DNA from: Candidatus Magasanikiibacteriota bacterium
Lineage (GTDB): Bacteria; Patescibacteriota; Patescibacteriia; Magasanikbacterales; UBA922
Length of the DNA stretch: 56,223 nucleotides
Assembly (NCBI GenBank): GCA_003482855.1
Contig: DMXO01000004.1
Location: 1 to 56,223, forward strand
Direction: 5' to 3'
The notes beneath the pieces are model-generated. The model was not told the DNA's origin. It ran no database searches and saw only the letters and a list, made by a program, of their open reading frames with translations. The position numbers and the translations under genes were made by a program. Below, piece after piece: positions 2,510-33,871 of this stretch (positions are counted from its first letter, which is position 1; every line of letters begins with the position of its first letter).

Positions 2510-2521
2510 TCGCTATACTCT

Positions 2522-3310: not shown

Positions 3311-3321
3311 TGATTTTATTT

Positions 3322-3975: not shown

Positions 3976-3984
3976 TTATTTCTT

Positions 3985-4353: not shown

Positions 4354-4363
4354 CTGTCTTTGT

Positions 4364-4756
4364 ATGAAACGTATTATAAATTTTCTTTTTTCTTTCATTT
4401 GTGTATGTATTTTTTGTGTGCCCGCGTATGTGTTTACGGTGGATTTGGGAGTGGAAAGCTATGTAACTGATGCTGGTAAAGCGGCTGGATATGATGTTGC
4501 CAATACTGATGAATTTTCTTTGTCAAAAAATATTGGGCAAGTAGTGAATATCGTGTTGTCCATCATTGGCGTGTTGTTCACCGTGCTCATGGTATACGCA
4601 GGGTATCTCTGGATGACTGCTCGTGGCGCAGATGAACAGATAGAGAAGGCAAAATCAATGATTACTGCTGCTATTATTGGTATTATTATTACACTCGGCG
4701 CATATAGTATCTCAGCATTTGTTGTGCCACGCATTTTGGCGAGTACTACGGTATAA
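4364..4756 (+). CDS. VirB2/TrbC-like pilin
   Basis: Core YAGYLWMTARGADEQIEKAK; ATG 4364 follows the upstream stop. Confidence 0.85.
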   Translation: MKRIINFLFSFICVCIFCVPAYVFTVDLGVESYVTDAGKAAGYDVANTDEFSLSKNIGQVVNIVLSIIGVLFTVLMVYAGYLWMTARGADEQIEKAKSMITAAIIGIIITLGAYSISAFVVPRILASTTV

Positions 4757-4759
4757 TGT

Positions 4760-5164
4760 ATGAAGTATTTTATTATTAGTTTCGTGTGTGTTGTAGGGAT
4801 TATAACCAGTCTATCTCCTGTTTTTGCTACTGATGTCAAAGATAAAGCTATAGAACAATTGCAAGCAGGTGGTGTACAGGCAGGCTATGGTGAGGAAGCT
4901 CAGGACCCTCGTGTCATTGCAGCTCGAGCGATTCAGATGTTTCTTGGTCTCATAGGCACTATATTCACGTTTTTGTTTGTATATTCTGGCTATCTTTTGA
5001 TTACGTCTCACGGCGAAGAAGACAAAATCACCAAAGCACGCAAGACTATGATGGGCGCAGTCATAGGATTGTTTGTTACACTGCTTGCTTTCAGTATTAC
5101 GTATTTTATTGGCACTCGCGTGCGTGAAGTCACCGGAGTCGGGTCATCTTCAATTATAGATTAA
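4760..5164 (+). CDS. VirB2/TrbC-like pilin
   Basis: Core YSGYLLITSHGEEDKITKARK. Confidence 0.8.
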   Translation: MKYFIISFVCVVGIITSLSPVFATDVKDKAIEQLQAGGVQAGYGEEAQDPRVIAARAIQMFLGLIGTIFTFLFVYSGYLLITSHGEEDKITKARKTMMGAVIGLFVTLLAFSITYFIGTRVREVTGVGSSSIID

Positions 5165-5171
5165 TGGGCAT

Positions 5172-5726
5172 ATGAAAGAATTTTTATATATATGTATAGT
5201 ATTTCTTGGATTATCTTTTTTTGTCCCGCAGATTGTACACGGAGAAGACGATGAGAATGTAGGAACTATTACTATGCCTAATATAGTATCTCAGATGCAA
5301 AATCAGAACCAGGCATTCGCAGGTGAAGATGGAGCAAATTTGGGTAATCCGTCAGATATACGTGTAATAGTTGCCCGCATTATCAAAATATTTTTGGGTC
5401 TTGTAGGGACACTTATGGTCATATATACGTTTTATGGAGGATTTCTATATATGACATCAGGAGGTGCTGAAGACAGGATAGAAAAGGGGCGCAAGATTAT
5501 TTTTTATGGGGTTCTAGGGAGTCTTATTGTTCTCATGTCATATAGTCTTGCATGGTTTGCGTATTATATTGCGTACAAAGGGGTTGAGCAAAATCCATAC
5601 GGCGGATTTTTCAACTGGGGCGTGTCTGTGGGCCCTGATACAAGCCAATTTTATCAGACTGATCCACTTGAGCAAAATACTGTGCCAGACCAATTACAAT
5701 TGGAAAATATGCTCAAAGGGAATTAA
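5172..5726 (+). CDS. VirB2/TrbC-like pilin with C-terminal extension
   Basis: Core YGGFLYMTSGGAEDRIEKGRK. Confidence 0.8.
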   Translation: MKEFLYICIVFLGLSFFVPQIVHGEDDENVGTITMPNIVSQMQNQNQAFAGEDGANLGNPSDIRVIVARIIKIFLGLVGTLMVIYTFYGGFLYMTSGGAEDRIEKGRKIIFYGVLGSLIVLMSYSLAWFAYYIAYKGVEQNPYGGFFNWGVSVGPDTSQFYQTDPLEQNTVPDQLQLENMLKGN

Positions 5727-7783: not shown

Positions 7784-7859
7784 TGGGGTGGCCAACGGGA
7801 ATTGAACCCGTATTGTCGGTACCACAAACCGAAGTAATAACCTTTATACCATGGCCACC
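7784..7859 (-). tRNA. tRNA-His(GUG)
   Basis: Reverse complement folds as a cloverleaf: G-1, acceptor GTGGCCA/TGGCCAC, anticodon arm TCGGT-TTGTGGT-ACCGA, T-loop GGTTCAATTCC, encoded CCA. Confidence 0.95.
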
Positions 7860-7976
7860 ACAATATATTCCTTATAGAGATTTATATTTTGTAACGAAGG
7901 ATAGTATAGGAAAAATAAACTTATTTGTCAATAAAACCTCCCGAAAGGAGGTTTTATTTAGTATAATATTGATTGT

Positions 7977-8720
7977 CTACTTATTACCCATTCGTTCAAA
8001 TGCGCGTAATACTTCAAGAGGCATTGCAAATATCACTGTATTTGATTGGTCTGAGCTTAAATCGTTGATAGTGCTCAGTGTACGTAAATGTAAGGCTCCT
8101 GGAGAATGTGATAAGAGCTCAGCAGCTTTGGCAATATTTTCTGCGGCTTGCAGCTCACCACTTGCTTTGATAATGACTGATCGTTTTTCTCGCTCAGCTT
8201 CTGCTTGTTTTGCGATGACGCGTTGCATATCATCGGGCAAAGTCACATCTTTGAGTTCTACACTTTCGACTTTTATCCCCCATGGGTCAGTGGCCTTGTC
8301 TACGATCTCTTTTATTTTTTGTGCGGCTGCTTCTCTATTTGCCAAGAGTTCGTCAAGTTCAAGTTCACCTACTACATTACGCATCGTTGTCTGAGCAAGT
8401 TGACTCACTGCATACCAAAAATTTTCTACTTCAAGTATTGCTTTTGACGCATCGCTCACCTTGTAATATATAACAGCGTTTATTTTTGCTGAGATATTGT
8501 CTTTGGTAATAGCTTCTTGATAGGGGACATCAACAGCTTTTACACGCATATCTACTTTTATCATACTTTGGAACACAGGGACGATGAGACGCCAACCAGG
8601 ATTGACCACGCGGACGAATTTACCAAGTTGGAATTTAACGCCGCGTTGGTATTCATTTACCTGGCGGATGCTGATGAGCAATATGAATCCTACTATGATA
8701 AGTAGGGGTATTAATGCCAT
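7977..8720 (-). CDS. SPFH/band-7 (slipin/stomatin-like) membrane protein
   Basis: N-terminal TM; ITKDNISAKINAVIYYKV, AQTTMRNVVG, WGIKVESVELKDV and QAEAERE motifs. Confidence 0.9.
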   Translation of the reverse strand: MALIPLLIIVGFILLISIRQVNEYQRGVKFQLGKFVRVVNPGWRLIVPVFQSMIKVDMRVKAVDVPYQEAITKDNISAKINAVIYYKVSDASKAILEVENFWYAVSQLAQTTMRNVVGELELDELLANREAAAQKIKEIVDKATDPWGIKVESVELKDVTLPDDMQRVIAKQAEAEREKRSVIIKASGELQAAENIAKAAELLSHSPGALHLRTLSTINDLSSDQSNTVIFAMPLEVLRAFERMGNK

Positions 8721-8736
8721 ATTCTTATATTTAAGT

Positions 8737-8765
8737 ATAAAATCGCCTTTGTTAGGCGATTTTAT
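8737..8765. terminator. Hairpin downstream of the tRNA-Arg locus
   Basis: ATAAAATCGCCT / AGGCGATTTTAT 12-bp inverted repeat. Confidence 0.6.
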
Positions 8766-8825
8766 TATAGCAATTAGTCGAGCAGGTTGCAAGAAGCAAT
8801 TTTGACTCAAGATTTGGTTCTCATC

Positions 8826-8923
8826 TGTGTCCCGGCGAAGAATCGAACTTCGATCTAAAGCTTAGAAGGCTTCTATTCTATCCATTGTCAGCCCGAGGCT
8901 GATCCGCCTTTGGCGGAAACTAC
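8826..8923 (-). pseudogene. Interrupted near-duplicate of tRNA-Arg(UCU)
   Basis: 8826-8887 is identical to 8933-8994 (62 nt); then a 30-nt double-hairpin insert (8888-8917), AACTAC, and no 5' acceptor strand. Confidence 0.85.
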
Positions 8924-8934
8924 TCTATATTTTG

Positions 8935-9006
8935 TGTCCCGGCGAAGAATCGAACTTCGATCTAAAGCTTAGAAGGCTTCTATTCTATCCATTGAACTAC
9001 CGGGAC
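8935..9006 (-). tRNA. tRNA-Arg(UCU)
   Basis: Acceptor GTCCCGG/CCGGGAC; anticodon arm GAAGC-CTTCTAA-GCTTT; T-arm GAAGTTCGATTCTTC; CCA not encoded. Confidence 0.93.
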
Positions 9007-9045
9007 TTTTTACGTGGCTTATTTTAGCTCTTTTTTATTTATTTG

Positions 9046-10050
9046 TCAATCTTTACTACGTCTTTTATCATGAAATTTTTTATGTATATTGCGGAGTTCT
9101 TTATCAGTAATATGAGTGTAGATTTGCGTAGTAGTGATGGATGAGTGTCCAAGCATGGCTTGCACGCTGCGGATGTCAGCCCCATTTTGTAGTAAGTCAG
9201 TTGCATATGAATGGCGCATCGTGTGAGGGGTGACTGGTTTGGTAATACCTGCTTCGCGCGCATGTTTTTGTACAATACGTTCTACTGAACGAGCTGTGAG
9301 TGGTTCATCATTTTGTGTTTCAGCGCTCGTATGTTTCAGCGCTCGTATGTTTCCTGTTCGTTTGTCATGAGAAACAAAAAGGTATGGATTTACATCACCT
9401 CGCACATCAAGGTATTTTTTTACCCAATATTTTGCTTGTTCTGACAGGAAAACAACGCGGGTTTTTCTTCCTTTTCCGGTGATACTGAATTCGTCCCGCT
9501 TGAGATTCACGTCTTCTATTTTGAGTTTGACAAGTTCTGACACACGCAGACCAGTAGAAAATAAGAGTTCAAGAATAGCTTTATCTCTATATGCGATCAA
9601 TAATGTAGGAGGAGTTTTCTCTTTTGTTTTTTCGTGTTCGAGTGCTTTTGTGCTTATGTTTTTGAATGGAGATTCGAGCATTCTATTTAAATCACTGCCA
9701 TCAAGGAAACTTACCTCTCTATCGGGCATTTTCATAAGTTCTATTTTTTCTGAAGCAAGAGTATCTATATCACGTTTGGCCAGATATTTGAGAAATGATC
9801 GTAGCGCAATAAGATGATAATTTTGAGTATTTTTTTTAAGTTGTTCCCCGTGGACATCTACGAGACGGTTGAGCCACAGGCGATATTGTCGTACTTTTTC
9901 CATGGTAATATCATCGGGTTTTGTATTGTCCCCGAGCCATTCCAAAAACCTATGTAAATAAAAATCGTAATTTTGTACGGTTTTTTGGCTGCGGTTTTTT
10001 TCAATCTCGAGATGTTCAAGGAATTGGGTGAGGTAATCTTTTATGGTCAT
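9046..10050 (-). CDS. XerC/XerD-family tyrosine recombinase
   Basis: Catalytic set TGLRVSEL, GKGRK, HTMRH, LGH, TQIY; N-terminal SAM-like domain (RSQKTVQNY). Confidence 0.92.
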   Translation of the reverse strand: MTIKDYLTQFLEHLEIEKNRSQKTVQNYDFYLHRFLEWLGDNTKPDDITMEKVRQYRLWLNRLVDVHGEQLKKNTQNYHLIALRSFLKYLAKRDIDTLASEKIELMKMPDREVSFLDGSDLNRMLESPFKNISTKALEHEKTKEKTPPTLLIAYRDKAILELLFSTGLRVSELVKLKIEDVNLKRDEFSITGKGRKTRVVFLSEQAKYWVKKYLDVRGDVNPYLFVSHDKRTGNIRALKHTSAETQNDEPLTARSVERIVQKHAREAGITKPVTPHTMRHSYATDLLQNGADIRSVQAMLGHSSITTTQIYTHITDKELRNIHKKFHDKRRSKD

Positions 10051-18891: not shown

Positions 18892-20501
18892 TTTTCTTCC
18901 GTCTTTTCAAGTAAGTATAACGTGTTATTAGGATTCCAGCCGGGGATCTTTTTTGTTTCTTTGATTTTATATGGTTCAAGTGGCGAAAAGCTGACGATAT
19001 AGTTCTGCGTATTATTGACAAAAATATTGCGTATCCACCACGGTCCGTTCCATGCCCCGTGAGGTGTGCCATTTTGTTGTGCTTCATACGCAGACCAATA
19101 TGTATGCCAACCGTTCCATTCATAACCTGCGTCAATATGGTATGGCTCGATTCTTGTTTCATATAGTATATTATTTGCGAGCTTCCAACGTGTTTTATTC
19201 CAATTCAAATAAAATGCTGTTTGGTTAATACTAAAAAATGCAAAACCTATAAGAATTGCGATCGCCACTAGAGCAGATATTTTTTTGAATGTCAGGTATT
19301 GTGCGATGATGATTCCCATTATTATAAAGAGAGGCAAATAGTATCTGTCAAAGCTTTGGAAAATAAGTATAGGTATAAGATATATGAAACCAAACACATA
19401 GAATAGACCTTGTATTTTTTGGTTTGGTTGTTTGTTTTTTCCCATTATATATAAGAGCCATCCACCGCTTGCAGCACACGTAAGTGTAATAATGCCCCAT
19501 ATTTTGCTTGAGAAAATAGACTTCAAAATGCCATTTAGTGTATATTCCACTCCGCCAAGCCCATATTGGGTAATGATGTTCATGACATAGGGGAATTGTG
19601 TTTTTAACATTTGTCTTATGACAATAGCAATGATAACTGTGGTAAAAATGGTAAGAAGTAGTTTCCAATTTTTGAAATGGCTTTTTGTTCTTTTAAATGC
19701 GTATCCCATGGCGAAGGGAATGGAAAAGAATCCTAGGTATATAAGTGAATACCAGATCCACCACAGAATGTGTTTGAGCATTTCACTTGAAGCTACAGTG
19801 TGGTATGAGGAACCTTGAGGAAGTAGATTGTTGTTATCCAAAAAAATGTAGATAATTAGCCATAGTATAGAAGGTATTCCGAAAGACCAAAGTGAATGTT
19901 TTAATGGAATATTTTTTAATTGTGTAAGAGAATATATGCCGGCTGCTACCATGAGTAAAATATTTGTTTGTCTTGTATAGAATCCAATAATTGAAAAAAG
20001 AGATCCCCCCAAAATGTATAATGGTTTTTTTTCTGTAAAAGCAATGGAGTAAAAATAGAGTGATACGACAAATAAAAAGAGTGCGGGTATGTCAGTCATG
20101 AATGTAAATGAGAGGTTGTAGAAAATTGGATTGAACCAGAGGGCAAGGACGATGAGTAAGTTGATGTGAGGTTTGTGATTAAGTTTGTATAGTAGGAAGT
20201 TGAAAGTCAAAAGTGTTCCTAATGCTAAGATCAGTGTGGAGATACGTAAGATGGAGAATGAAAATCCAAATATTTTTGTAAGTGCCGCGCCATAGAGAAT
20301 AGGAACATAAAATGTGGGACCGGCATAGGTGGACATGCGAAATTCCCCCGAATCGACCCAATGTTTCATGATTTCAGTATGGACCCAATCGTCATTTAAG
20401 GCGAATTCACCAATAGGACTGATAAACAAAAATTGTCCCAAGAATAGGATAATAATTATCAAAGAATAATATATAGCCGGTCTTTTGAGAAAATTTTTCA
20501 T
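18888..20501 (-). CDS. Polytopic GT-C (ArnT/GT39-like) glycosyltransferase
   Basis: First-loop NDDW, FTFMTDIPAL, FYTRQ and FDRYYLP motifs; ATG overlaps the upstream TGA. Confidence 0.75.
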   Translation of the reverse strand: MKNFLKRPAIYYSLIIIILFLGQFLFISPIGEFALNDDWVHTEIMKHWVDSGEFRMSTYAGPTFYVPILYGAALTKIFGFSFSILRISTLILALGTLLTFNFLLYKLNHKPHINLLIVLALWFNPIFYNLSFTFMTDIPALFLFVVSLYFYSIAFTEKKPLYILGGSLFSIIGFYTRQTNILLMVAAGIYSLTQLKNIPLKHSLWSFGIPSILWLIIYIFLDNNNLLPQGSSYHTVASSEMLKHILWWIWYSLIYLGFFSIPFAMGYAFKRTKSHFKNWKLLLTIFTTVIIAIVIRQMLKTQFPYVMNIITQYGLGGVEYTLNGILKSIFSSKIWGIITLTCAASGGWLLYIMGKNKQPNQKIQGLFYVFGFIYLIPILIFQSFDRYYLPLFIIMGIIIAQYLTFKKISALVAIAILIGFAFFSINQTAFYLNWNKTRWKLANNILYETRIEPYHIDAGYEWNGWHTYWSAYEAQQNGTPHGAWNGPWWIRNIFVNNTQNYIVSFSPLEPYKIKETKKIPGWNPNNTLYLLEKTEEN

Positions 20502-20722
20502 TTTTTTGTTTTTATATGCCAGATTTCGTAGAGGCTCGCGAGTGTAAATACGATTTGTAATGGGATGAATATAGGATCTCTGAGCGATATACTGTATATC
20601 AGTAGCAGAAGTCCGCCGATGATGAATACCCAATCTTGTTTAATTTCATCTTTTATGAAGATTCCGTAGGTGATAAAAAGGAGACCGAAAGCTCCTAATA
20701 CTTTGGGCAGATATTCGAGCAT
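20498..20722 (-). CDS. Small three-TM protein (74 aa), paralog of 17078-17395
   Basis: TYGIFIKDEIKQDWVFIIGG; ATGA coupling to the GT-C gene. Confidence 0.7.
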   Translation of the reverse strand: MLEYLPKVLGAFGLLFITYGIFIKDEIKQDWVFIIGGLLLLIYSISLRDPIFIPLQIVFTLASLYEIWHIKTKK

Positions 20723-20777
20723 AGTGATATGTGTGAAATGTTTATTATAAACAGAGTATAGCAAAATGTCCTAAAAT

Positions 20778-21354
20778 AAAAAACCCTCGGTGATGTCGAA
20801 GTGTATTTAATTTGATGGGGAAGGGCGGCGCTATCAAGCAACCGCCCCATGTGTCTTCCTACGAGAACCTCGGTAGGAGTCCGGAGTGTTACACGAAGCT
20901 CGGTGTAACTCCAGAGGACCTACGAGATTGTGCGGTAGGTAGCCGGCATCGGATTTTCTACGAGAGAACGCGGTAGAAAACCGGCGACATACACCTACGA
21001 GAGACTCGGTAGGAATCCGGAGCCTGGACGAGAAACTAGGTCCAGCTCCGGAGATTTGTCCACGAGAAACGCGGTGACAAGCCAGCGACAGTTTTTCTCA
21101 CGAGATTCGCGGTGAGAAACCGGCGGCAAGTCCACGAGAATCTCGGTGGACATCCCGGAGCGTCTACGAGATTCGCGGTAGAACAGCCAGCGTCAGAATT
21201 TCCTACGAGATAATGCGGTAGGAAACCGGCAGTGGACTATCTACGAGAAACTCGGTAGATACCCGGAGGGTCATGAATTCCTCACGACGGTGTGTGCAAC
21301 TACTTAGTAGTGAGACACATCGTCGTGGAGAATTACTTTTTCATCTTTAAAGAA
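20778..21354 (-). ncRNA. Candidate ~575-nt structured ncRNA: 5' long hairpin, 12 tandem H-type pseudoknots, 3' hairpin and U-tract
   Basis: Minus-strand TTGACA-17-TATACT promoter at 21389-21361; flanking hairpins 21276-21334 and 20815-20850; weak hairpin plus U6 at 20801-20778; no ORF of 60 aa or more. Strand is inferred. Confidence 0.6.
20857..21268. repeat. Array of 12 degenerate ~35-nt units with covarying stems (not CRISPR)
   Basis: Each unit on + reads [stem]A-CGA(GA)-n-XXX-GG-T[stem']-n-CC-R-X'X'X'; the stems differ between units yet stay paired. Confidence 0.95.
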
Positions 21355-21360
21355 CAGCAT

Positions 21361-21389
21361 AGTATAACATGAAAACATAAATATGTCAA
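21361..21389 (-). promoter_or_regulatory. Sigma70 promoter pointing into the repeat array
   Basis: TTGACA (21389-21384), 17-nt spacer, TATACT (21366-21361). Confidence 0.75.
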
Positions 21390-21474
21390 GAGTATCAGGT
21401 ATATGTTTATTTTTTAAGCATAAAAAATGCTAAGATAAGCCATTTTAAAAAAAATAAATATGTTAACTAAATAC

Positions 21475-21503
21475 TTTACAAATTTGATATAATATGTTAT
21501 ACT
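21475..21503 (+). promoter_or_regulatory. Sigma70 promoter of the TrmB-like gene
   Basis: TTTACA-17-TATACT. Confidence 0.6.
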
Positions 21504-21578
21504 TAAGCTGTAATTAGCAAAAAGTTGTGTTAATTATATACAGCCAATATAATAAAAAATGGCTTAAATAAGCAAAAT

Positions 21579-22334
21579 ATGAAGTCTTTATATGAATCAC
21601 TTGTTTCTATAGGGTTTGAATCTCTTGCTGCTCAAGTATATGTCTTGCTTGTAGAAAAAGGCGAAATGACTGTTTCGCAAATAAAAAAAGATATTGGCCT
21701 ATCTCGTACAAGTATTTATGAGGCTTTTACTTATTTACTTGCGTATGATTTTGTCGAATATAGGAAACAAGGTAGGAACGCTTTATACAAAGCGAATCAT
21801 CCTAATAAAATTTTTGGAAGTATCGAACAAAAGCATAAAGATTTTGAATTAGAAGAACAGAGAGTAAAGAATGATGTGAAGACGCTTATAGGTATGTATA
21901 ATTTGGCAAATAAAAAACCAGGTATTAGATACTATGAAGGCAAGGAAAGTTTTTGGCAGTTATATAATGAGACGCTTGAAAGCAGAGATATTGTGTATAC
22001 TATTGAAAATGAAGAGGCTGCAATTGCAACGCAAGGTTCAATGGAACATTATGACAAGGACCGTGCTCAAAAGAAAATTACACAATATATTATTGTTCCA
22101 GATACGCCAGCTGGTCGTGCCCTGAAGTCACGGACAGAGAATGATCCATATACTCAAGTTCGTATATTGCCAAGTGACAAGCCATCATTTAAATCAACCA
22201 TAGATTTGTTTGGTGGCAAATTGCTTATAGCTACTCAACGTAGTGAAGAGCCAATAATGGTGGTGATAGAAGACCCTGATATTTACCAGATGCAGCGTCA
22301 AGTATTCGAGATGTTGTGGAGTTCACTTAAATAA
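21579..22334 (+). CDS. TrmB-family HTH transcriptional regulator
   Basis: LVSIGF...AQVY..L...GEMTVSQI...IGLSRTSIYE HTH; GIRYYEG and PLD-like C-terminal domain. Confidence 0.85.
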   Translation: MKSLYESLVSIGFESLAAQVYVLLVEKGEMTVSQIKKDIGLSRTSIYEAFTYLLAYDFVEYRKQGRNALYKANHPNKIFGSIEQKHKDFELEEQRVKNDVKTLIGMYNLANKKPGIRYYEGKESFWQLYNETLESRDIVYTIENEEAAIATQGSMEHYDKDRAQKKITQYIIVPDTPAGRALKSRTENDPYTQVRILPSDKPSFKSTIDLFGGKLLIATQRSEEPIMVVIEDPDIYQMQRQVFEMLWSSLK

Positions 22335-22358
22335 AAAGACGGGCATGAGCTCGTCTTT
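22335..22358. terminator. Bidirectional terminator
   Basis: AAAGACGGGC / GCTCGTCTTT stem between convergent genes. Confidence 0.65.
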
Positions 22359-22374
22359 GGTTTTGTGGCGTATT

Positions 22375-24998: not shown

Positions 24999-25337
24999 AT
25001 GTCATACGTACTGACGCGGTTCGACCTCTCGCTCCTGGTAGTTATCCAGGGGCTCGGAGGTGTGCCCGGCGCAGAGTCGGTGCACGGACGAAGTGTCGTT
25101 GAACTCGCCAGAGCGACCGGGGCTCTTGGTGAGTTTTCAACCGGCGAGCTTCTCGCCGCGACCAAACATCTCGCAGAGGTCCTCGGGCTTCTCGAGGTGG
25201 AGACCCCAAAGAAGGGGGGTCTCAGGTCGCGGCTTACGCCGTCTGGGGTCGAGCGGCTCGCAACCGAGCTCGAAGTGCAGTCGTGGGCTCATGAGCTCGC
25301 GACACGGCTTCGCGGCCACATGTCTGTGGCTGCTTGA
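24999..25337 (+). CDS. High-GC small protein, PadR-like winged helix (tentative)
   Basis: GGAGGTGA Shine-Dalgarno; STGELL...L...GLLE...RSRLTPSG..RL pattern; GC about 67% in two 60-nt lines counted. Confidence 0.55.
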   Translation: MSYVLTRFDLSLLVVIQGLGGVPGAESVHGRSVVELARATGALGEFSTGELLAATKHLAEVLGLLEVETPKKGGLRSRLTPSGVERLATELEVQSWAHELATRLRGHMSVAA

Positions 25338-25386
25338 CCCTGAGGGGGGGTGTCGATCGTTCTCCGGCCACGGTCGACAAACTCCA

Positions 25387-25414
25387 AAAAACATCAGTTA
25401 ATCTGGTGTTTTTT
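25387..25414 (+). terminator. Intrinsic terminator after the high-GC ORF
   Basis: AAAAAACATCAG / CTGGTGTTTTTT stem. Confidence 0.6.
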
Positions 25415-25467
25415 GATTTTGATATTGACAAACACTCTTGATTTAGTATACTTTCTATATAATTACA

Positions 25468-25620
25468 AAGCATTAAGCCGTCATCAGCGGCAAGCTGGGA
25501 GAAGAAAGTTTAAAAGACGAGTAGAACTCCACGGGTAAGCCCGTAAAAGCTGTAACGAAGCACCAAAACAGGGTGGTACCGTCCCACATCGGGGCCCCTG
25601 TAGGATAATTGGTGTTTTTT
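25468..25620 (+). promoter_or_regulatory. Ile T-box riboswitch with ultrashort stem I
   Basis: Stem I GCCG-UCAUCAG-CGGC with AUC specifier (25483-25485); stem II with AGAA/AGUA S-turn; IIA/B ACGGG-UAAG-CCCGU..GCU; antiterminator ACAGGG-UGGUACC-GUCCC..GGGGC-CCCUGU; U-tract; TTGACA-16-TATACT upstream; precedes ileS. Confidence 0.9.
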
Positions 25621-25631
25621 TATTTAATTTC

Positions 25632-25736
25632 CAAGAAACAAGAAACAATTTTCAAATAAATCTCAAATTACAATCTCCAAAATTTGAAATTATCTATTAG
25701 GAGATTGGAAATTATTTGGAAATTGTGTCTTGTTTC
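25632..25736. repeat. Heptamer-rich imperfect palindrome in the ileS 5' leader
   Basis: Shares both termini with 23364-23527. Confidence 0.65.
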
Positions 25737-25751
25737 TTATAATTTATTCTT

Positions 25752-28745
25752 ATGCCCTATAACGCCAACCAAAACGAACAAGAAATTCTTAAATATTGGG
25801 ATGAACATAATTGTTTTGGAAAATCAGTGAGTGAACGTCCGGAAGACAAACCGTACGTATTTTATGATGGTCCTCCATTTGCGACGGGTCTGCCTCATTA
25901 TGGTCACATTGTTGCCTCACTTATGAAAGATGTGGTGCCTCGTTATTGGACAATGCGTGGGTATCGCGTGGAACGTCGTTGGGGCTGGGATTGTCATGGA
26001 TTACCTATTGAAAATATTATTGAAGATCAACTCAATTTGAAAACAAAGAAAGACATTGAAGCAATGGGGGTGGCAAAGTTTAATGAAGCATGCCGTTCGA
26101 CCGTGCTCAAATACGCTGAAGAATGGAAACACACGATTCATCGTATGGGGCGATGGGTAGATATGGACAATGCGTACAAAACAATGGACATAGAATTCAT
26201 GGAAAGTGTATGGTGGGTATTTAAACAACTTTGGAATAAGGGTTTGATTTATGAAGGAAAAAAATCCATGCATATCTGTCCTCGTTGCGTGACACCACTT
26301 TCCAATTTTGAAGTTACCCAAGGGTACAAAGATGTAAAGGATTTGTCAGCCACTGTAAAATTTAGAATTACTAGCTTGGAATTTAAAGAAAAATTGGGGA
26401 TAGAGGGGGAATTATATATTTTGGCATGGACGACAACACCATGGACATTGCCAGGAAATGTGCTTTTGGCAGTTGGAGAGAATATTGAATATGTGCTCGT
26501 GCAGTGTTTGGAAAAAAATAATGGCTATTTTGTTTGTGCAAAAGACCGCGTCGGTGAAGTATTCAAGCAGTGCGAGAAGGACAAGTTTGAACTGGTAGGT
26601 AGTTTCAAGGGTTCAGATTTGCTTGGTCTCACCTATGAGCCGTTATTTCCTTATTTTGTAAATACTGAAAATGCGTTCCGTGTAGTTGCTGGAGATTTTG
26701 TAAGTACTGAAGATGGCACTGGAGTAGTACATATTGCACCTGCTTTTGGCGAGGATGATTACAAGGTAGGTGAACGGGAGAAAACAGGTTGGGTACAGCA
26801 TGTGAATATGGATGGTACATTTATCCCCGAAGTCACTGACTTCGCAGGCGTGGAAGTAAAGCCAAAAGAAGATCCGACACGCACGGATGTAGAAATTATT
26901 AAATATCTATCAGCGCATGGTACGCTTTTTGCAAAAGAAAAATTTGGGCATAGTTATCCGCATTGTTGGCGTTGTGACACACCGCTTTTGAATTATTCCA
27001 CTTCATCATGGTTTGTACGTGTGACCGAAATGAAGGACGAACTTTTAGAAAATAATAAAAAAACAAATTGGGTACCCGATCATATCAAAGATGGCCGGTT
27101 TGGTTTGTGGCTTGAGGGTGCGCGGGACTGGGCTATTTCGCGTAATCGTTTTTGGGGTTCGGCATTGCCTATTTGGCGTAGCGAAGATGGGGATACTCTT
27201 TGCATAGGCAGTGTAGATGAACTCGAAACCCTGTCTGGTCAAAAGGTAAAAGATCTCCATAAGCATATTGTAGACGAAATAGTTATTACAAAAGATGGGA
27301 AAGAATATCGTAGGATTCCGGAAGTTCTTGATTGTTGGTTTGAGTCTGGTGCCATGCCCTATGGTCAAATGCATTATCCCTTCGAAAACAAGGAAAAACT
27401 TGAGGCAGGTTTTCCCGCAGAATTTATTGCAGAAGGTCAAGATCAGACACGTGGGTGGTTTTATACACTTCATGTGCTTGCGACCGCACTTACTCGTGGT
27501 GATAATCCTTCTATACCTAAGAAAGAGATTTTACCTGCTTTTCGCAATGTGATTGTCAATGGCATAGTGCTTGCTGAAGATGGGAAAAAGATGAGTAAAC
27601 GTCTCAAAAATTATCCTGATCCTTTGGAAGTGCTTGAAAAATATGGGGCTGATGCTATGAGATTCTATTTAGTCAACTCCCCAGTCATGCATGCTGAAAG
27701 TCTTAATTTTTCTGAAAAGGGTGTGTGGGAAATGTATAATAAGCTTATCAATACATTGTGGAATGTATATACGTTTTATTCTATGTTTAACACAGATTCC
27801 ACTGATTATACAAAAGATTCCACTGGTTCAAATAACATTTTAGACAAATGGATTTTGGCTAAGTTGAATGTTTTGGTAAGAGAAGTAACTGGAAAAATGG
27901 ATGAATATAAGCTGGCTGAAGCAAGTCGTCCGATTGTAGATTTTGTTACTGAGTTATCCCAGTGGTATGTGCGTCGTTCGCGTGATCGATTTAAAGGTGA
28001 CGATGAAGAGGATAAACAAAACGCACTTTCTACTTTGCGTTTTGTACTTCTGACCTTATCTAAAGTGATGGCGCCGTTTACGCCTTTTATCGCGGAAAAG
28101 GTGTATCAAGAAATTACAAAAACACAGGAATCTGTGCACTTAGAACTATGGCCGAGCGTTGATAAAAATTTGGCTGATAAGAAGTTGCTAGAAGAAATGG
28201 ACAAGGTCCGTAAAGTTGTAGAAATGGGACTTGGTTTGCGGGCAGAAGCAGGTATAAAAGTTCGCCAACCACTTTCTCAATTCTCAATTCTCAACGAAAA
28301 GTTGCGTGGCAACCTCGTTGCTTTACGCAATTCTCAATTCTCAAACGAATTAAAAAATATTATCTCCGAAGAATTAAATGTAAAAGAAGTCGTAGATGGT
28401 GCGCAGATTGGGAACGATTGGATAGAGAAAGAGGACAATGGGATTAAGGTTGCTTTGAATATAAAAGTTACCGAAGATTTGAGAAAAGAAGGACTAGTGC
28501 GCGAAATCGTCCGCACTATAAACCAAATGCGTAAAGAGCAGAAAATGACCATTCACGATCGTGTTATAGTAGAATATTATACGCCCGATGAATTGTTGAA
28601 GTCCGTTTTTGCAGAGTTTAAAGATGATATCAAACGACAGGTACTGGCAAGTGATATTTGTGAGGAAAAGATTGAACTCGATGAATCAGACCAGACATTG
28701 GAGAATATCGACGGCAGGGCAGTGAGTCTTTCTGTGCATAAATAA
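25752..28745 (+). CDS. ileS: Isoleucine-tRNA ligase (type 2)
   Basis: GPPFATGLPHYGH (HIGH), WTTTPWTLP, SRNRFWG, KMSKR; Ile T-box upstream. Confidence 0.95.
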   Translation: MPYNANQNEQEILKYWDEHNCFGKSVSERPEDKPYVFYDGPPFATGLPHYGHIVASLMKDVVPRYWTMRGYRVERRWGWDCHGLPIENIIEDQLNLKTKKDIEAMGVAKFNEACRSTVLKYAEEWKHTIHRMGRWVDMDNAYKTMDIEFMESVWWVFKQLWNKGLIYEGKKSMHICPRCVTPLSNFEVTQGYKDVKDLSATVKFRITSLEFKEKLGIEGELYILAWTTTPWTLPGNVLLAVGENIEYVLVQCLEKNNGYFVCAKDRVGEVFKQCEKDKFELVGSFKGSDLLGLTYEPLFPYFVNTENAFRVVAGDFVSTEDGTGVVHIAPAFGEDDYKVGEREKTGWVQHVNMDGTFIPEVTDFAGVEVKPKEDPTRTDVEIIKYLSAHGTLFAKEKFGHSYPHCWRCDTPLLNYSTSSWFVRVTEMKDELLENNKKTNWVPDHIKDGRFGLWLEGARDWAISRNRFWGSALPIWRSEDGDTLCIGSVDELETLSGQKVKDLHKHIVDEIVITKDGKEYRRIPEVLDCWFESGAMPYGQMHYPFENKEKLEAGFPAEFIAEGQDQTRGWFYTLHVLATALTRGDNPSIPKKEILPAFRNVIVNGIVLAEDGKKMSKRLKNYPDPLEVLEKYGADAMRFYLVNSPVMHAESLNFSEKGVWEMYNKLINTLWNVYTFYSMFNTDSTDYTKDSTGSNNILDKWILAKLNVLVREVTGKMDEYKLAEASRPIVDFVTELSQWYVRRSRDRFKGDDEEDKQNALSTLRFVLLTLSKVMAPFTPFIAEKVYQEITKTQESVHLELWPSVDKNLADKKLLEEMDKVRKVVEMGLGLRAEAGIKVRQPLSQFSILNEKLRGNLVALRNSQFSNELKNIISEELNVKEVVDGAQIGNDWIEKEDNGIKVALNIKVTEDLRKEGLVREIVRTINQMRKEQKMTIHDRVIVEYYTPDELLKSVFAEFKDDIKRQVLASDICEEKIELDESDQTLENIDGRAVSLSVHK

Positions 28746-28949: not shown

Positions 28950-31331
28950 ATGCATACAGAATCTATCGAAAGTCTTAAAGGGAAGACAATACTTCTTGTA
29001 AATACAGGGCCACACAAGAAACGTTTTATTGTACAACGTCTCAAGAAACTCGGTCTCGTGGTCGTTGTTCTCAATAAAGAAAAAAATTGGGCAGCTCCTT
29101 ACGTAGATCATTGGATTATTGCAGACACGTTCAATCATACTGAAGCGGTGAAGGCCGTGGAATCTTTTGTGAAGACAAATTCAGATATTCATATTGATGG
29201 TACTGTCACGTTTTGGGAGGATGACGTACTTTTGACATCAAAAATCGTCGACAAATTTAATTTTGTTGGGGTCCCATATAGCATTGCTCGTCAGACGAGG
29301 AATAAATATTTATTTCGAGAATTTTGTATGGCAAATGGCATACGAGCCCCGCGTCATCATCTACTCAAAGATGAAGATGATATTGATTATGTTTGTGATA
29401 ATCTACAATTTCCTTTGGTAGTAAAGCCTGCCTATGGAGCAAGTAGCGCTTATGTGGTAAAAGTGTATAGTCGAGATGATTTGGTCAATACATACAAATT
29501 TTTGAAACATAATATAAATACAGAGCTTGAAAGCGCATTATCAGATGGATTGGATATATTTGTTGAGGAGTATATTGATGGAGACGAAGTCGACGTGGAT
29601 ATCCTCATGCAGAATGGGAAAATAAAATTGAGCATTGTATCTGATAATTTCAACAAAGATAAAGGTATCTTTTTTGTCGATAGTGGTCAGACGACACCTT
29701 CGACACTCCCTACGCCACAAATTCAAGCATTGATCGATATAGCAGAGGAGACACTTGAGAAACTGGGTATCCAAAATGGATGTATACACTATGAGGCCAA
29801 ATCTACCAAGACTGGTCCCTGTCCTTTGGAAGTTAATCTACGCATGGGTGGAGACTATGTCTACTCATATATAAAAAATGCATGGGGTATAGATCTTATA
29901 GAATATTCAGTGAGGATTGCTATAGGTCAGTTTTTCAAAATTAAAGATATACAACCACGGCAATATATTATTGGTTGGGATTTACATCCAGATTCTTCAG
30001 GTCTCCTTGTTGAACTGTCTGTAGATGATAATTTGAAAAAGGAAAAATATTTTCAAGAAATAAATTTGTATAAAGAGGTTGGTGATCCTGTCTTACTGCC
30101 TCCCGAGGGTCAAGAGCATATAGGCTGGTTGACCGTATCTGGAGATAATTTTCTTGACGCACAAGATAATCTAAGAAACGCCCTTGAAAAAATACATTTT
30201 AAAGTGGTGAAATTTGATTCAGATTCGTCTGTGGGCAAGACACTTCGCAAGGACAGATTTTCTGCTGCAGTACTTAATAAAAATCTGTTGTTGCGTGCGG
30301 CAAAGCTTGAAAAAGTAAAACGTGTATCACATGGAGATCAAAAAGGGTTGCATATCGGGATTGCAGGAAATATGAGCGAAGAATTAAATGGCGACGATCC
30401 TATAGGGAAAGTAGTAGTAAAAACATTGCGCGAAAGAGGATACAAAGTGACTTTTTTTGATTTTAACAATTTGGCGAAGGCTTTTGGCGATTTGCGTCGC
30501 AGTGATGTAGACCTTGTATTCAATATGTGTAAAAAAATAAGTAATTCTACAGATCTTGAGCCTGCTGCCGCTGCACTGCTTGAATCACTACAAATCCCTT
30601 ATACAGGATCAGACAGCTTTGTATTGTCTCTATGCCGTGACAAAATAAAAGTCAAAAAATTACTTACGTATCATGATATCCCGACACCCAAATGGGACTA
30701 TGCATATGAGCTTGATGATGAGATACGAGATGATTTGCGTTTTCCACTCATTGTGAAGCCAGGTACGAGTGATAATTCTATAGGTATTACCAATGAATCT
30801 GTTGTCACCAATCGAGAACAAATGGAAAAACAGTTACGACGTATCATCGTAGACTATGGTAAGCCCGCAATAGTGGAAGAATATATAGAGGGTGATGAAT
30901 ATGATGTATCTATTCTTGGTTGTGATGATGATAATCTGCGGGTGTTGCCCTTATCGCGCGCAGTGTTCAAGGGACTCCCCAAGGATTATTGGCATATATA
31001 TACATATGTGGCAAAGCAAGGTGGAGACCCTACGTATAAAAAAATTGAGATTCAACATCCGCCCAAGAATATCGGCAGAAAATTGGAGTCACTCATTACC
31101 GAGATCGCGCTCGACACATATTCTATATTGGATTGTCGGGATTATGGTCGTGTTGAAGTACGTGTAGATGAAAATGATAATCCTTATGTATTAGAACTTG
31201 ACCCTAATCCGTCATTTGATGTCTCTTATGCACACTTACCTCAAGTAGCTGCACTCGTAGGTATGGATTTTGGAGATTTGTTGGAAGAGATTATTTATCT
31301 TGCAATTCAGCGATACAAACGTACTAGCTAG
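28950..31331 (+). CDS. Double ATP-grasp protein (N: L-amino-acid-ligase-like; C: D-Ala-D-Ala-ligase-like)
   Basis: VVKPAYGASS...EVNLRMGG, then IPYTGS, LIVKPGTSDNSIGI, DYGRVEVR and LELDPNP. Confidence 0.88.
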   Translation: MHTESIESLKGKTILLVNTGPHKKRFIVQRLKKLGLVVVVLNKEKNWAAPYVDHWIIADTFNHTEAVKAVESFVKTNSDIHIDGTVTFWEDDVLLTSKIVDKFNFVGVPYSIARQTRNKYLFREFCMANGIRAPRHHLLKDEDDIDYVCDNLQFPLVVKPAYGASSAYVVKVYSRDDLVNTYKFLKHNINTELESALSDGLDIFVEEYIDGDEVDVDILMQNGKIKLSIVSDNFNKDKGIFFVDSGQTTPSTLPTPQIQALIDIAEETLEKLGIQNGCIHYEAKSTKTGPCPLEVNLRMGGDYVYSYIKNAWGIDLIEYSVRIAIGQFFKIKDIQPRQYIIGWDLHPDSSGLLVELSVDDNLKKEKYFQEINLYKEVGDPVLLPPEGQEHIGWLTVSGDNFLDAQDNLRNALEKIHFKVVKFDSDSSVGKTLRKDRFSAAVLNKNLLLRAAKLEKVKRVSHGDQKGLHIGIAGNMSEELNGDDPIGKVVVKTLRERGYKVTFFDFNNLAKAFGDLRRSDVDLVFNMCKKISNSTDLEPAAAALLESLQIPYTGSDSFVLSLCRDKIKVKKLLTYHDIPTPKWDYAYELDDEIRDDLRFPLIVKPGTSDNSIGITNESVVTNREQMEKQLRRIIVDYGKPAIVEEYIEGDEYDVSILGCDDDNLRVLPLSRAVFKGLPKDYWHIYTYVAKQGGDPTYKKIEIQHPPKNIGRKLESLITEIALDTYSILDCRDYGRVEVRVDENDNPYVLELDPNPSFDVSYAHLPQVAALVGMDFGDLLEEIIYLAIQRYKRTS

Positions 31332-31355
31332 TTAATATATTATTGCTATTATTAT

Positions 31356-32729
31356 ATGGGTAAAAAGGATACAACTTTAAAGATTGAAGCTCATTTATTG
31401 AAAAATGGTCTATCAATTACTGTGAAAAACAAGACATACACTATAATATATCCAGCATACATATGGGCGCCTCTTTCTAAAGAAACAAAGAACATGCTCG
31501 TGGATAATATTGTCTTTACAAGCACCCATTTTCTTTCAGTTGTTTTAGATAAAGATACACTCGTATACAATACAAATTTTCCATTGTGTGAATCATTCAT
31601 ATTTAGAAATCATATAGAAGATATTCTTGATACTGAAAGGGTAGACGGCGTTCCTTTCCAGTCATACATGAAGAAATTGTATAATGCCACTTTTGAATTT
31701 ACTGATAAACAGACATCAGTGCCTCCATTTGTTGAATCGCCAGGTAAAGGCATACATACTTTGAAATCACCAGTTATTGTTCCGTTTACATTTGGAAAAG
31801 AGAGTTTGTTTGTCGCGCTGATGGCAAAGAAAATGGGAATGAACCCTATACTTGTTTATTTTGAAGATCCCATGGAACGTTATGAGACAGAGTACAAATT
31901 GAAACGGCTTTCTGCTATGGGCAAGATGTTGGATTGTCCTGTACATTTTGTTAAGAATGATGTTGGTCTATTTCGCGGAGGCCTTGCATTTGGTAAGCAT
32001 AGCGATGTCGGGTGGGGTGTACAGACTACATTATATACCATTATGTGTTTACCTTTTGTGTATTATTATAATGCCCACCACGTATTGTATGGTAATGAAT
32101 ATGCGAATAATGAATACGAGTATGCTCAAGGATGGAAACTGAATCATTCGTATGACCAGACAATTTTTTGGATGAAGCAACAAAGTGTTTTGGTGAATGT
32201 ACTGAGTAGCGGGCGATGTAGTGTGCAGAGTATGCTTGAACCTCTTGATGAACCAAATATTTTTTATCTTTTACACTCTTTGTATCCAGAGTTTGGTCGG
32301 CACCAATTTTCTTGTCGTGCGGAAAAGCCTTTGTTGAAAGGTTCTCAATGGTGTCACAAATGCTATAAATGTGCGCGTATGTATCTTTTTGCTTCAGCCT
32401 TTGGTGTAGACCCGTCAGCGATTGGCTTCAAAAAGAATTTATTGATCAAAGAAATGTTTAAAGATTATCTTTTTTCTTCGTTAGAAAGTGGAGATCCCAA
32501 AGATTTGGATTTTGCATTTTATACATTGTTGCAGAAAAAAGTTCAAAATGAAGTCGTTGACCTATTCAAGAAGAAGCGATTACCACATCTGAAGTCATGG
32601 TCATGGTATGTTGATTACTATACAAGTCTACGTACTATGCATAATGTGCCAAGCGTTCATGCCTCAAAGCTTATGTCTGTATATCGTAAAGGGTTAAAAG
32701 AATTTCGTTCATATTTATTGAATATATGA
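31356..32729 (+). CDS. PP-loop protein, MurL (peptide-glutamate epimerase)-like
   Basis: PFTFGKESL (GGKDS-like loop) and FSC...WCHKCYKC Cys cluster, as in MurL. Confidence 0.5.
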   Translation: MGKKDTTLKIEAHLLKNGLSITVKNKTYTIIYPAYIWAPLSKETKNMLVDNIVFTSTHFLSVVLDKDTLVYNTNFPLCESFIFRNHIEDILDTERVDGVPFQSYMKKLYNATFEFTDKQTSVPPFVESPGKGIHTLKSPVIVPFTFGKESLFVALMAKKMGMNPILVYFEDPMERYETEYKLKRLSAMGKMLDCPVHFVKNDVGLFRGGLAFGKHSDVGWGVQTTLYTIMCLPFVYYYNAHHVLYGNEYANNEYEYAQGWKLNHSYDQTIFWMKQQSVLVNVLSSGRCSVQSMLEPLDEPNIFYLLHSLYPEFGRHQFSCRAEKPLLKGSQWCHKCYKCARMYLFASAFGVDPSAIGFKKNLLIKEMFKDYLFSSLESGDPKDLDFAFYTLLQKKVQNEVVDLFKKKRLPHLKSWSWYVDYYTSLRTMHNVPSVHASKLMSVYRKGLKEFRSYLLNI

Positions 32730-32738
32730 CAGGTAATT

Positions 32739-33668
32739 ATGTTGCAAAATAAATTGTCTTCTCATCTTTCATTACTAACAAAAAAGGAACCGGTAATCAG
32801 TCGTCAATTCATCCCTTCAGAATGTGAAAATATAGTTACACAGTCCGCGTCTGAGGACCCTCTAAATGAGGAGATGTATAGTCCTGTTCGTGGTCTTGTT
32901 CATAAATATGAAAATCGTGTTCTCGTCCTTCTGACTATGAATTGCGCAGCATATTGTCGTTTTTGTGATCGACGACGCAGTGTATCTGAAATAAAAAAAG
33001 GAATTATCACTGCCAAAGATATTGATGTTATGTGTGCATATGTGACCAAGCATCCAGAGATTCATGAGGTAATTTTTTCTGGTGGAGATCCCCTCACAGT
33101 TCCTGAAATTCTTAAACAAGCATTACAAAAATTTACGTCATTATCCCAAATAAAGATTATTCGTATTGGATCGCGTTTACCTGTATCAAATCCTCTGCGT
33201 ATTACCTCTCAAGTGCTCGATGCCCTGCGCGTAGTAAAAAAACAGCCACTATATATGATGCTTCATTTTGAGCATCCTGCCGAAATCACTCCAGAGACGG
33301 TGAAAGCTGTCAAAAAATTACAATCGGTAAGTACCATGTCATTATCCCAGTCAGTATTTCTCAAAGGTGTGAATGATTCAGAAGACATATTGTGTGAGCT
33401 ATTTACTCGGCTGGTAGAAATAGGAGTTAAACCATATTATCTTTTTCGATGCGAGCCAGTGAGAGGCGCAGAACATTTTATTGTGCCTTTTGACAGAGAG
33501 GTGGAGATTGCCACTCGTCTGCATGAAAGATTGAGTGGTCTATCTGTACCTTCCTATGTCATCGATGTACCGGGAGGAGTAGGCAAGGTGCCTGTTGCAT
33601 TGAATTTTTGGAAGGTAAACAGAAGCTCATTTACAGATTTTCAGGGCAAAAAGGTCAAGACGGCTTAG
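32739..33668 (+). CDS. KamA-family radical SAM aminomutase (lysine 2,3-aminomutase/EpmB-like)
   Basis: VHKYENRVL, CAAYCRFC, SGGDPL, QSVFLKGVND, PYYLF and PGGVGK (PLP Lys) motifs. Confidence 0.9.
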   Translation: MLQNKLSSHLSLLTKKEPVISRQFIPSECENIVTQSASEDPLNEEMYSPVRGLVHKYENRVLVLLTMNCAAYCRFCDRRRSVSEIKKGIITAKDIDVMCAYVTKHPEIHEVIFSGGDPLTVPEILKQALQKFTSLSQIKIIRIGSRLPVSNPLRITSQVLDALRVVKKQPLYMMLHFEHPAEITPETVKAVKKLQSVSTMSLSQSVFLKGVNDSEDILCELFTRLVEIGVKPYYLFRCEPVRGAEHFIVPFDREVEIATRLHERLSGLSVPSYVIDVPGGVGKVPVALNFWKVNRSSFTDFQGKKVKTA

Positions 33669-33871
33669 TTTTTGACTCATTATACAACAAAATTCGTATA
33701 TTATTGACAACATATATGGTGCGTAGTATACTGTAGACTTCTATATTATATTTTTTATGGGCGTCGCTTGTCTAAGCGCTTCTGACAATTCAGAGCCAGA
33801 CAGTTTGCAAGTAAATTATTTATTTTATCTTTAGACCCAGTGGTTAACAGCCAGTTGGGTTTTTATTTTTT

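Follow-up and report, generated by a model that had tools for sequence, protein, structure and literature searches.

Type III toxin–antitoxin loci carry a tandem array of short repeats with a promoter ahead of it and a palindromic terminator behind it, and the ToxI repeats measure 31–46 nucleotides (nt; PMC3401426). An array of similar outline lies in a 56,223-nt stretch of DNA (contig DMXO01000004.1 of assembly GCA_003482855.1; hereafter the window) from an ultra-small groundwater bacterium, Candidatus Magasanikiibacteriota, a member of the Candidate Phyla Radiation (CPR, or Patescibacteria). It consists of twelve tandem units, each predicted to fold as an H-type pseudoknot, and stands beside a divergently transcribed gene for a TrmB-family regulator. 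As in the ToxI, CptI and TenpI loci, the short pseudoknot units have their own predicted promoter (21389–21361) and terminator (20801–20785). In contrast to those loci, no gene for a ToxN/AbiQ, CptN or TenpN endoribonuclease directly follows the terminator; twelve units are present instead of about two to six, with diverged sequences sharing one structure where the known repeats are near-identical; and the partner gene is the oppositely transcribed regulator. The literature yielded no description of such an array, and sequence comparison strongly supports its assignment as a structured RNA element without a catalogued counterpart.

Other RNAs share individual features with the array. CsrB and RsmZ are protein-sponge RNAs that bind CsrA through many GGA motifs exposed in hairpin loops or in single-stranded spacers. 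Like them, the array would form one non-coding transcript with a repeated conserved motif in local structures, bracketing hairpins and a terminator; its units, however, are predicted pseudoknots with a UCUCG loop, their spacing and geometry are far more regular, and no CsrA-like partner is known. None of the unit loops contains GGA (they read NNUCUCG on the minus and CGAGAnn on the plus strand), which occurs only inside stems. The autoregulatory pseudoknot of phage T2/T4 gene 32 is a protein-recognition element present as a single copy in an mRNA leader. It has the same geometry as the units described here, with a very short first loop spanning a second stem of 6–7 base pairs (bp) and a loop of about 7 nt spanning a first stem of 5–6 bp, but it lacks sequence similarity to them and contrasts with their twelve non-coding copies. 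Transfer-messenger RNA (tmRNA), the 5' untranslated region of foot-and-mouth disease virus and the upstream pseudoknot domain of tobacco mosaic virus contain two to four pseudoknots in a larger RNA or viral untranslated region. In these, too, several H-type pseudoknots stand head to tail in one RNA, but no stand-alone bacterial gene of 12 units is among them. A tmRNA has a tRNA-like domain and a tag reading frame with pseudoknots on its flanks; neither ARAGORN nor Rfam found one in the window. Repetitive extragenic palindromes and their mosaic elements (REP/BIME), whose conserved palindromes are scattered over a genome and often alternate in orientation, do not match either: the units have a single orientation and unconserved stems, and no other copy occurs in the 56-kb window or in related loci.

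Crossing pairings in twelve tandem units

Anchored on its ACGA motifs in a reading of 20500–21700, the array comprises 12 units within 20856–21268 at a mean period of 34.7 nt, with anchors at 20861, 20893, 20922, 20960, 20997 and 21028 (units 1–6) and at 21062, 21100, 21134, 21166, 21205 and 21243 (units 7–12). All 12 are in the same orientation. The units are 29–39 nt long, and the linkers between pseudoknots, of 0–7 nt, show no conserved sequence that could serve as a cleavage site. On the plus strand a unit reads arm(4–7 nt)-A / CGAGAnn / XXXGG / T-arm' / 0–4 nt / CC-R-YYY, where YYY is complementary to XXX; unit 2 departs from this pattern with CGAAG (ACGAAG) in place of CGAGAnn. The variable stem formed by the two arms has 4–7 contiguous Watson–Crick pairs in 11 of the 12 units and six pairs with one bulged base in unit 7, and the stem sequences are not conserved. 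The triplets XXX/YYY are CTC/GAG in five units, CGC/GCG in four and TGC/GCA in two, the remaining unit having the mismatch CTA/GAG. Ten units have 7 nt between GG and CC and the other two have 8 nt, independently of stem length. An initial annotation of this DNA had given twelve units with a period of about 35 nt, differing but paired stems, covarying triplets and this 7- or 8-nt spacing, and each of its figures was reproduced here.

Its further proposal, that selection acts on structure rather than on sequence, agrees with permutation and covariation tests on the 12 units. When the 3' arms of the variable stem were dealt among the units, 27 ± 5 contiguous Watson–Crick pairs formed, compared with 63 observed (0 of 100,000 permutations). 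For the triplets, 11 of 12 matches are perfect against a permuted mean of 4.2, and only 7 of 100,000 permutations reach the observed value. Pairs were also counted after a plain MAFFT run on the minus-strand units, whose alignment counts against the model because it places units 2, 9 and 10 partly out of register; on this alignment the pseudoknot structure pairs 83.8% of cells compared with 69.3% after shuffling, and the covariation score is 0.417 compared with 0.184 (0 of 500). As a control, sliding the partners by 1–3 columns left pairing at only 27–51%. Comparison of units 4 and 11 is instructive at the level of single bases: of six differing positions, one is a flank base, another belongs to the variable portion of the loop, and four make up two compensatory pairs, one per helix. 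In the variable stem T-A is replaced by C-G, and in the pseudoknot stem C-G gives way to T-A. Bases that are invariant, or nearly so (GG, A, CC(G), UCUCG and U), are concentrated around the helix junction and within the long loop. Taken together, these results support selection on two crossing helices and not on their sequence. A CGAG/CUCG mini-hairpin was considered as the source of the covariation and rejected, being possible only in CUC-type units.

The units are 60–90% identical to one another, and owing to this limited likeness Tandem Repeats Finder reported no repeat in the array even at a minimum score of 30; type III repeats are expected to show up at its default settings. Identity is higher over the 47 nt that span the junctions of units 3–4 and 11–12 (83%; repeat family D5), which suggests that the array grew by segmental duplication.

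The array also stands out in composition, with 53.5–56.5% G+C compared with 32–40% in flanking DNA; the promoter region has 19%. A coding reading was rejected, as unit lengths are not multiples of three and gene callers placed no gene over the array in 10 independent contigs. A 576-nt stretch folds far better than its shuffled versions on both strands, with z-scores of –8.8 on the minus and –5.5 on the plus strand. The nested fold of the whole transcript pairs arms of different units; as the method cannot represent pseudoknots, this fold was not used for the model. Folding energies are about 0 to –4.5 kcal/mol for the first-stem hairpins alone and –5 to –11 kcal/mol for single units in nested folds. 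Just 3' of the last unit, positions 20849–20862 are complementary over 14 nt (12 of 14) to 21307–21320 in an arm of the long 5' hairpin. Such a pairing could clamp the two ends of the array together, and the minimum-energy fold is one that does not contain it.

At gathering thresholds of Rfam 15, whose families include tmRNA and the preQ1, guanidine-III, fluoride and SAM-II riboswitches, only tRNAs pass in the whole window. Within 20600–21600 the best sub-threshold scores are at most 21 bits against thresholds of 41–80 bits, with none passing even at E up to 10, and the weak look-alikes PK-BYV, mir-15_2 and sX13 were rejected as lying far below threshold. The array was put forward in the initial annotation as a candidate new RNA, a status that a strong Rfam hit would have removed; no such hit was found.

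Transcription signals and the functional strand

On the minus strand, a strong sigma-70-type promoter is predicted to drive a transcript of about 575 nt, from ~21354 to 20778. The promoter agrees with the consensus at 11 of 12 positions and carries the extended TG, which places the presumed start near 21354. In order of transcription, the RNA would contain a long stabilising 5' hairpin, 12 compact H-type pseudoknots, a GC hairpin (~20849–20822) and an intrinsic terminator. The TTGACA-17-TATACT promoter, the terminal U-tract and the bracketing hairpins were all already recognized in the initial annotation, and we find them as it described. In each pseudoknot, the first stem (stem A) would comprise 5 bp between YNC-Y-GG and CCGNR with a bulged pyrimidine (C in nine units, U in three). 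The hairpin loop of 7–8 nt would supply, with its 3' part, the 5' arm of the second stem (stem B), leaving a first loop of 0–4 nt. Stem B would have 4–7 bp, free in sequence except for a closing A-U junction pair stacked on stem A, and the last loop, of 7–8 nt and of the form NN(N)UCUCG, would end in the invariant UCUCG.

We infer both transcription and its strand from sequence features, several of which converge on the minus strand. A U·G wobble pair in the terminator hairpin is possible only on this strand. Further indications come from a 1245-nt contig of a second lineage (L254; contig 12657 from SRR30949871), which encodes a TrmB protein 51% identical to that of the window. L254 and the window share both promoter hexamers and the TG exactly, while about half of the spacer differs. 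The L254 contig also holds, at its edge, one divergent unit (13.9 bits, E = 0.0028 within the contig; all other hits had E ≥ 2), whose changed positions form G·U pairs on the minus strand and A·C mismatches on the plus strand. Loop lengths point the same way. In H-type pseudoknots, a loop of 1–2 nt can span the deep groove of a 6–7-bp stem, whereas the shallow-groove loop over a stem of 5–7 bp requires several nucleotides. Read on the minus strand, a loop of 0–4 nt spans the 4–7-bp stem and one of 7–8 nt the 5-bp stem, so that the H-type fold would fit this strand only; on the plus strand, the roles of the loops are swapped and the two helices could not coexist. The initial annotation left the strand unsettled because one G-T pair in a hairpin that it placed at 21276–21334 favours the plus strand. 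The hairpin (21276–21336) is indeed more stable there, at –32.4 kcal/mol (z = –4.9) on the plus compared with –26.4 kcal/mol (z = –4.1) on the minus strand, but the promoter, the terminator wobble, the G·U pairs of L254 and the loop lengths narrow the choice, and the functional strand is quite probably the minus strand.

The TrmB regulator, its neighbourhood and its relatives

The divergent TrmB regulator named in the initial annotation is borne out by a Pfam match (Table 1), and the protein matches the profiles of the TrmBL2 structures 5box/5bqt over its full length. The sites at 21428–21446 and 21556–21574 form an inverted repeat (pair I1) that flanks the TrmB promoter. The pair lies about 40 nt upstream of the array promoter, and the two divergent promoters are about 90 nt apart. 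A 15-mer of the operator-like site, TGCTAAGATAAGCCA, is identical in L254 (141–155), and a related sequence, AGCTTAAAATAAGCCA, occurs in another locus (L293, 96–111) whose TrmB is 49% identical. The inverted repeat is probably the binding site of this TrmB subfamily, and its placement and conservation support, though they do not prove, control of both promoters by the regulator. The window contains a second TrmB-family gene (55037–55972, 311 amino acids), which is divergent from an operon for a branched-chain amino-acid ATP-binding cassette (ABC) transporter (50345–54921) and has no array beside it.

Past the array terminator, the minus strand encodes a membrane protein of 74 amino acids (the small open reading frame, ORF) and then a GT39/PMT_2 glycosyltransferase; on the other side of the array, the TrmB gene is followed by genes for TrxB-like, RPE and RpiB proteins. 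Relatives whose GT39 is 74%, 59% or 54% identical show the order RpiB-RPE-TrxB-small ORF-GT39 with neither TrmB nor array. Judged by this synteny, the array and TrmB gene together (~20780–22374) form a 1.6-kb insertion. Because the small ORF, 82% identical in a relative without the array, and GT39 are kept where the array is missing, they are not its partners. In such relatives the downstream operon has its own promoter with a TG-extended –10 element, and a homologous promoter persists behind the terminator here.

The window belongs to a population of Candidatus Magasanikbacteria, whose genome is present in samples from the Rifle aquifer; the same DNA is found in GCA_001783195.1 and in several groundwater metagenomes. 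One further locus (L253) carries an identical array, and a strain variant (L292) starts just past it. A seemingly shorter array in a metagenome-assembled genome at NCBI (MFQX01000004.1; L122, 9572–9613) was considered as a copy-number variant and rejected: a run of N replaces units 7–10. Homologous arrays in other genomes, which the initial annotation suggested looking for, were recovered only as the divergent unit in L254, and no full homologous array came to light. L254 also has a hairpin at the place equivalent to 21276–21336. A covariance model built from the units found no extra copy in the 56-kb window or related loci. Word-based searches with TrmB gave few hits and a cluster look-up found no longer contigs, while a full HMMER search recovered the TrmB subfamily, whose closest members are rare and lie on contigs of 597–1245 nt. 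Exact-pattern scans of genome contigs with a two-unit pattern and of metagenome contigs with a three-unit pattern gave, among the matches listed (at least 119 in each), only chance or unrelated matches, namely chance hits in GC-rich genomes and unrelated coding tandem repeats. A completed IMG/VR scan gave 28 stretches and no array. In about 270 unrelated loci taken from the pattern scans, the unit detector saw no such array, and blastn against plasmid and phage collections gave no match. Assemblies break in or next to the array in L126–L129 and L292, and L254 ends in its divergent unit. Given such breaks and N gaps, databases are likely to under-represent elements of this kind.

Several other features of the window deserve mention. 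Upstream of the gene for isoleucyl-tRNA synthetase (25752–28745) lies a sub-threshold T-box leader (25471–25602; 27 bits compared with a gathering threshold of 93) that has the canonical AGGGTGGTACCG motif and looks like a shortened CPR T-box. Between it and the synthetase start codon, a near-perfect palindrome of about 105 nt (25633–25738) matches plant microRNA precursor models equally on both strands and is simply a long hairpin. The 1 kb at 25001–26000 is the most GC-rich of the window (48% compared with ~38%), and a GC-rich ORF of 112 amino acids at 24999–25337, without a Pfam match and called in only one assembly, may be foreign DNA. Ten consecutive paralogous genes at 6–5726 each encode a type IV secretion system pilin domain (PF18895). 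The region 7784–10050 holds tRNA-His, a tRNA-like element (8828–8899; Rfam 31.9 bits, not called by ARAGORN) and tRNA-Arg; a tyrosine recombinase gene (9046–10050) adjoins these tRNAs, and the site may be an integration hotspot. Finally, two paralogous double ATP-grasp proteins of about 795 amino acids (28950–31331 and 33872–36259) enclose a 457-amino-acid protein of no assigned family and a radical S-adenosylmethionine protein, and 28950–36259 may be a peptide-ligase or modification cluster.

Table 1. Predicted features of the array and of the neighbouring TrmB gene (window coordinates; units in order of transcription on the minus strand)
Feature	Positions	Strand	Details
TrmB-family (TrmBL2-like) winged-helix gene	21579–22334	+	251 amino acids; Pfam TrmB 7.7e-13; divergent from array
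Operator-like site 2	21556–21574		AAAATGGCTTAAATAAGCA; just upstream of TrmB start codon
TrmB promoter-like site	21475–21503	+	TTTACA-17-TGnTATACT; counterpart in L254
Operator-like site 1	21428–21446		TGCTAAGATAAGCCATTTT; between the divergent promoters
Array promoter, sigma-70-type	21361–21389	-	TTGACA, 17-nt spacer, TG-extended TATACT (TGnTATACT)
Long 5'-proximal hairpin	21276–21336	-	
Unit 12	21238–21268	-	First transcribed; covariance model 43.5 bits; CUC-C-GG / G / UAUCUA / CCGAG / UUUCUCG / UAGAUA
Unit 11	21199–21231	-	UGC/GCA type; variable stem 7 bp
Unit 10	21163–21192	-	CGC/GCG type; variable stem 4 bp; GG-CC spacing 8 nt
Unit 9	21130–21160	-	CUC/GAG type; GG-CC spacing 8 nt
Unit 8	21094–21125	-	CGC/GCG type; variable stem 7 bp
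Unit 7	21056–21087	-	CGC/GCG type; stem 6 bp with one bulged base
Unit 6	21024–21053	-	Only unit with a pseudoknot-triplet mismatch (CTA/GAG on +)
Unit 5	20994–21022	-	
Unit 4	20954–20986	-	CGC/GCG type; variable stem 7 bp
Unit 3	20918–20948	-	UGC/GCA type
Unit 2	20888–20916	-	Long loop short (5 nt); ACGAAG on +
Unit 1	20856–20886	-	Last transcribed
GC-rich hairpin between last unit and terminator	20822–20849	-	Region z –2.6 (minus), –0.4 (plus)
Intrinsic terminator	20778–20801	-	CUUCG-7 nt-CGAGG, then G and six U (GUUUUUU)

Possible functions of the array

We favour, with a probability of roughly 45%, the reading that the region encodes a stand-alone multivalent pseudoknot RNA that acts as a sponge or scaffold for a partner and whose level is set by the TrmB regulator. 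The GG/CC pairs, the A-U junction pair, the bulge and the UCUCG loop would present a common surface on all 12 units, while the variable stems would keep folding local to each unit. Many copies of one surface on locally folding scaffolds, together with protective ends, favour a multivalent binding RNA. We infer from this arrangement a platform on which as many as twelve copies of a single partner, probably a protein, would bind and which would either sequester that partner as a sponge or assemble it as a scaffold; the divergent TrmBL2-like regulator would set the amount of RNA through the shared operator-like sites.

Several observations weigh against this reading. No binding partner emerged, and the sole RNA-binding protein seen in the window, ribosomal protein S1, is encoded 25 kb away. 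All of the covariation is among paralogous units within one array, and units 4 and 11 have an alternative fold in which the first-stem GG would extend the second stem. A full array was seen in a single species, whose contigs all carry it with 100% identity; the second lineage contributes a single truncated, degenerate unit at a contig edge, and no array accompanies the TrmB homologues of 49%, 39% and 36% identity in the available sequence. The matches listed by the exact-pattern scans are uninformative either way as to its absence elsewhere. Moreover, the 5' hairpin and its counterpart in L254 are both more stable on the plus strand.

A bolder version of the multivalent reading, which we regard as doubtful, is that the locus represents a new class: a mobile module of a TrmBL2-like regulator and a long pseudoknot RNA in which each knot is an independent docking or aptamer site. 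Its dozen knots, alike in structure and different in sequence, would let the RNA scaffold or buffer, at high valency, a protein or metabolite that matters for episymbiosis in CPR bacteria. Arrays of this sort would be missed systematically, since assemblies from short reads break within them.

Among the alternatives, the type III toxin–antitoxin systems offer the closest architecture. In those systems the toxin processes the precursor to unit-length RNAs, with which it forms a closed RNA–protein complex. Cleavage of the array transcript would likewise release RNAs of about 35 nt, each neutralising one copy of a protein, an endoribonuclease or other toxin, encoded elsewhere or belonging to an unrecognised family. 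The order of promoter, tandem pseudoknot units of 29–39 nt, terminator and genes is that of a ToxIN locus, and further families of such systems are expected (PMC3401426). The crossing helices and their covariation are consistent with repeats that fold as pseudoknots, as in type III systems, and the array and TrmB gene behave like an accessory insertion. Two tested defining features nevertheless fail, the toxin gene and near-identical repeats. As the initial annotation had remarked, no ToxN-like gene is visible: among the neighbours there is no match to ToxN, CptN, TenpN or a family in PADLOC. A toxin role for the small ORF past the terminator was considered and rejected, for both it (82%) and GT39 (74%) are conserved in a relative without the array and so are not toxins held in check by it. 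The limited likeness of the units, to which Tandem Repeats Finder is blind, and the linkers devoid of a conserved candidate cleavage site also speak against this reading, and we consider it unlikely.

The units might instead be twelve tandem aptamers for a small molecule or ion, which, having no expression platform, would act as a ligand buffer or highly cooperative sensor. The preQ1-I, guanidine-III and SAM-II aptamers are small pseudoknot riboswitch domains, and the units resemble them as H-type pseudoknots of 30–40 nt with conserved nucleotides at the junction and in the loops; the size of about 30 nt recalls preQ1-I and guanidine-III in particular, and the fixed 7–8-nt geometry points to a precise pocket. 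The plus-strand ACGA also recalls the ACGR motifs of guanidine riboswitches, but that strand is unlikely to be transcribed. Against aptamers, there is no match to any Rfam riboswitch family even at E up to 10, and neither a regulated ORF nor an expression platform, through which a riboswitch controls the gene next to it, follows each unit; the transcript stops at a terminator of its own, and a separate promoter is retained by the downstream operon. Tandem riboswitches are, to our knowledge, known with two or three aptamers and not twelve, so that the repetition is without riboswitch precedent. This explanation, too, appears unlikely.

The functional element could also reside on the plus strand or in the DNA itself, the units being simple hairpins with a 12–13-nt loop and the pseudoknot an alternative pairing or switch. 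The element might then be a plus-strand RNA ended by the long hairpin and TTTTT, or the TrmBL2-like protein might bind the hairpins in single-stranded DNA. The greater plus-strand stability of the 21276–21336 hairpin fits this proposal, as do the ACTTTTTC that follows the hairpin on that strand and a wobble pair on the plus strand of the equivalent L254 hairpin. TrmBL2 proteins, to which the fold of the regulator matches, bind DNA with little sequence specificity. However, the sole upstream plus-strand promoter-like site is weak (9 of 12), whereas the strong promoter kept across lineages lies on the minus strand. On the plus strand a 0–4-nt loop would have to span the 4–7-bp stem, so that the helices could not coexist, yet both are selected; and binding sites in double-stranded DNA would not covary in this manner. 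We hold a plus-strand or DNA-level element to be quite unlikely.

Very unlikely is a role in cis, as a leader or attenuator governing read-through to the small ORF-GT39 operon. The array is on the same strand as this operon and directly upstream of it, with a terminator between them, but the operon's own promoter in relatives without the array, the homologous promoter still behind the terminator here and the arrival of the array with TrmB as an insertion all argue otherwise, and twelve repeats and 575 nt far exceed any known leader. A neutral minisatellite with pairings left over from a palindromic founder unit is barely credible: confinement to a single species and signs of segmental duplication (units 3–4 resemble 11–12) would suit it, but decay from a founder would destroy pairing and not preserve two helices through compensatory double changes, the loop and junction bases are invariant while the stems diverge, and the signals for transcription are undamaged, with some of them conserved in the second lineage.

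CPR bacteria have tiny genomes, and almost nothing is known of their regulatory RNAs. In a genome of this kind, a 575-nt gene for twelve pseudoknots, in each of which compensatory changes preserve the fold, is a large investment and a clear sign of function. Assembly breaks, together with the inability of repeat finders to detect the array, create a blind spot, and similar arrays may be commoner than databases suggest. If its units are indeed binding modules, no earlier bacterial example of a high-valency RNA sponge or scaffold built from pseudoknots would precede the array, which would also provide twelve natural, sequence-orthogonal variants of one fold, of use for recognition studies and RNA design.

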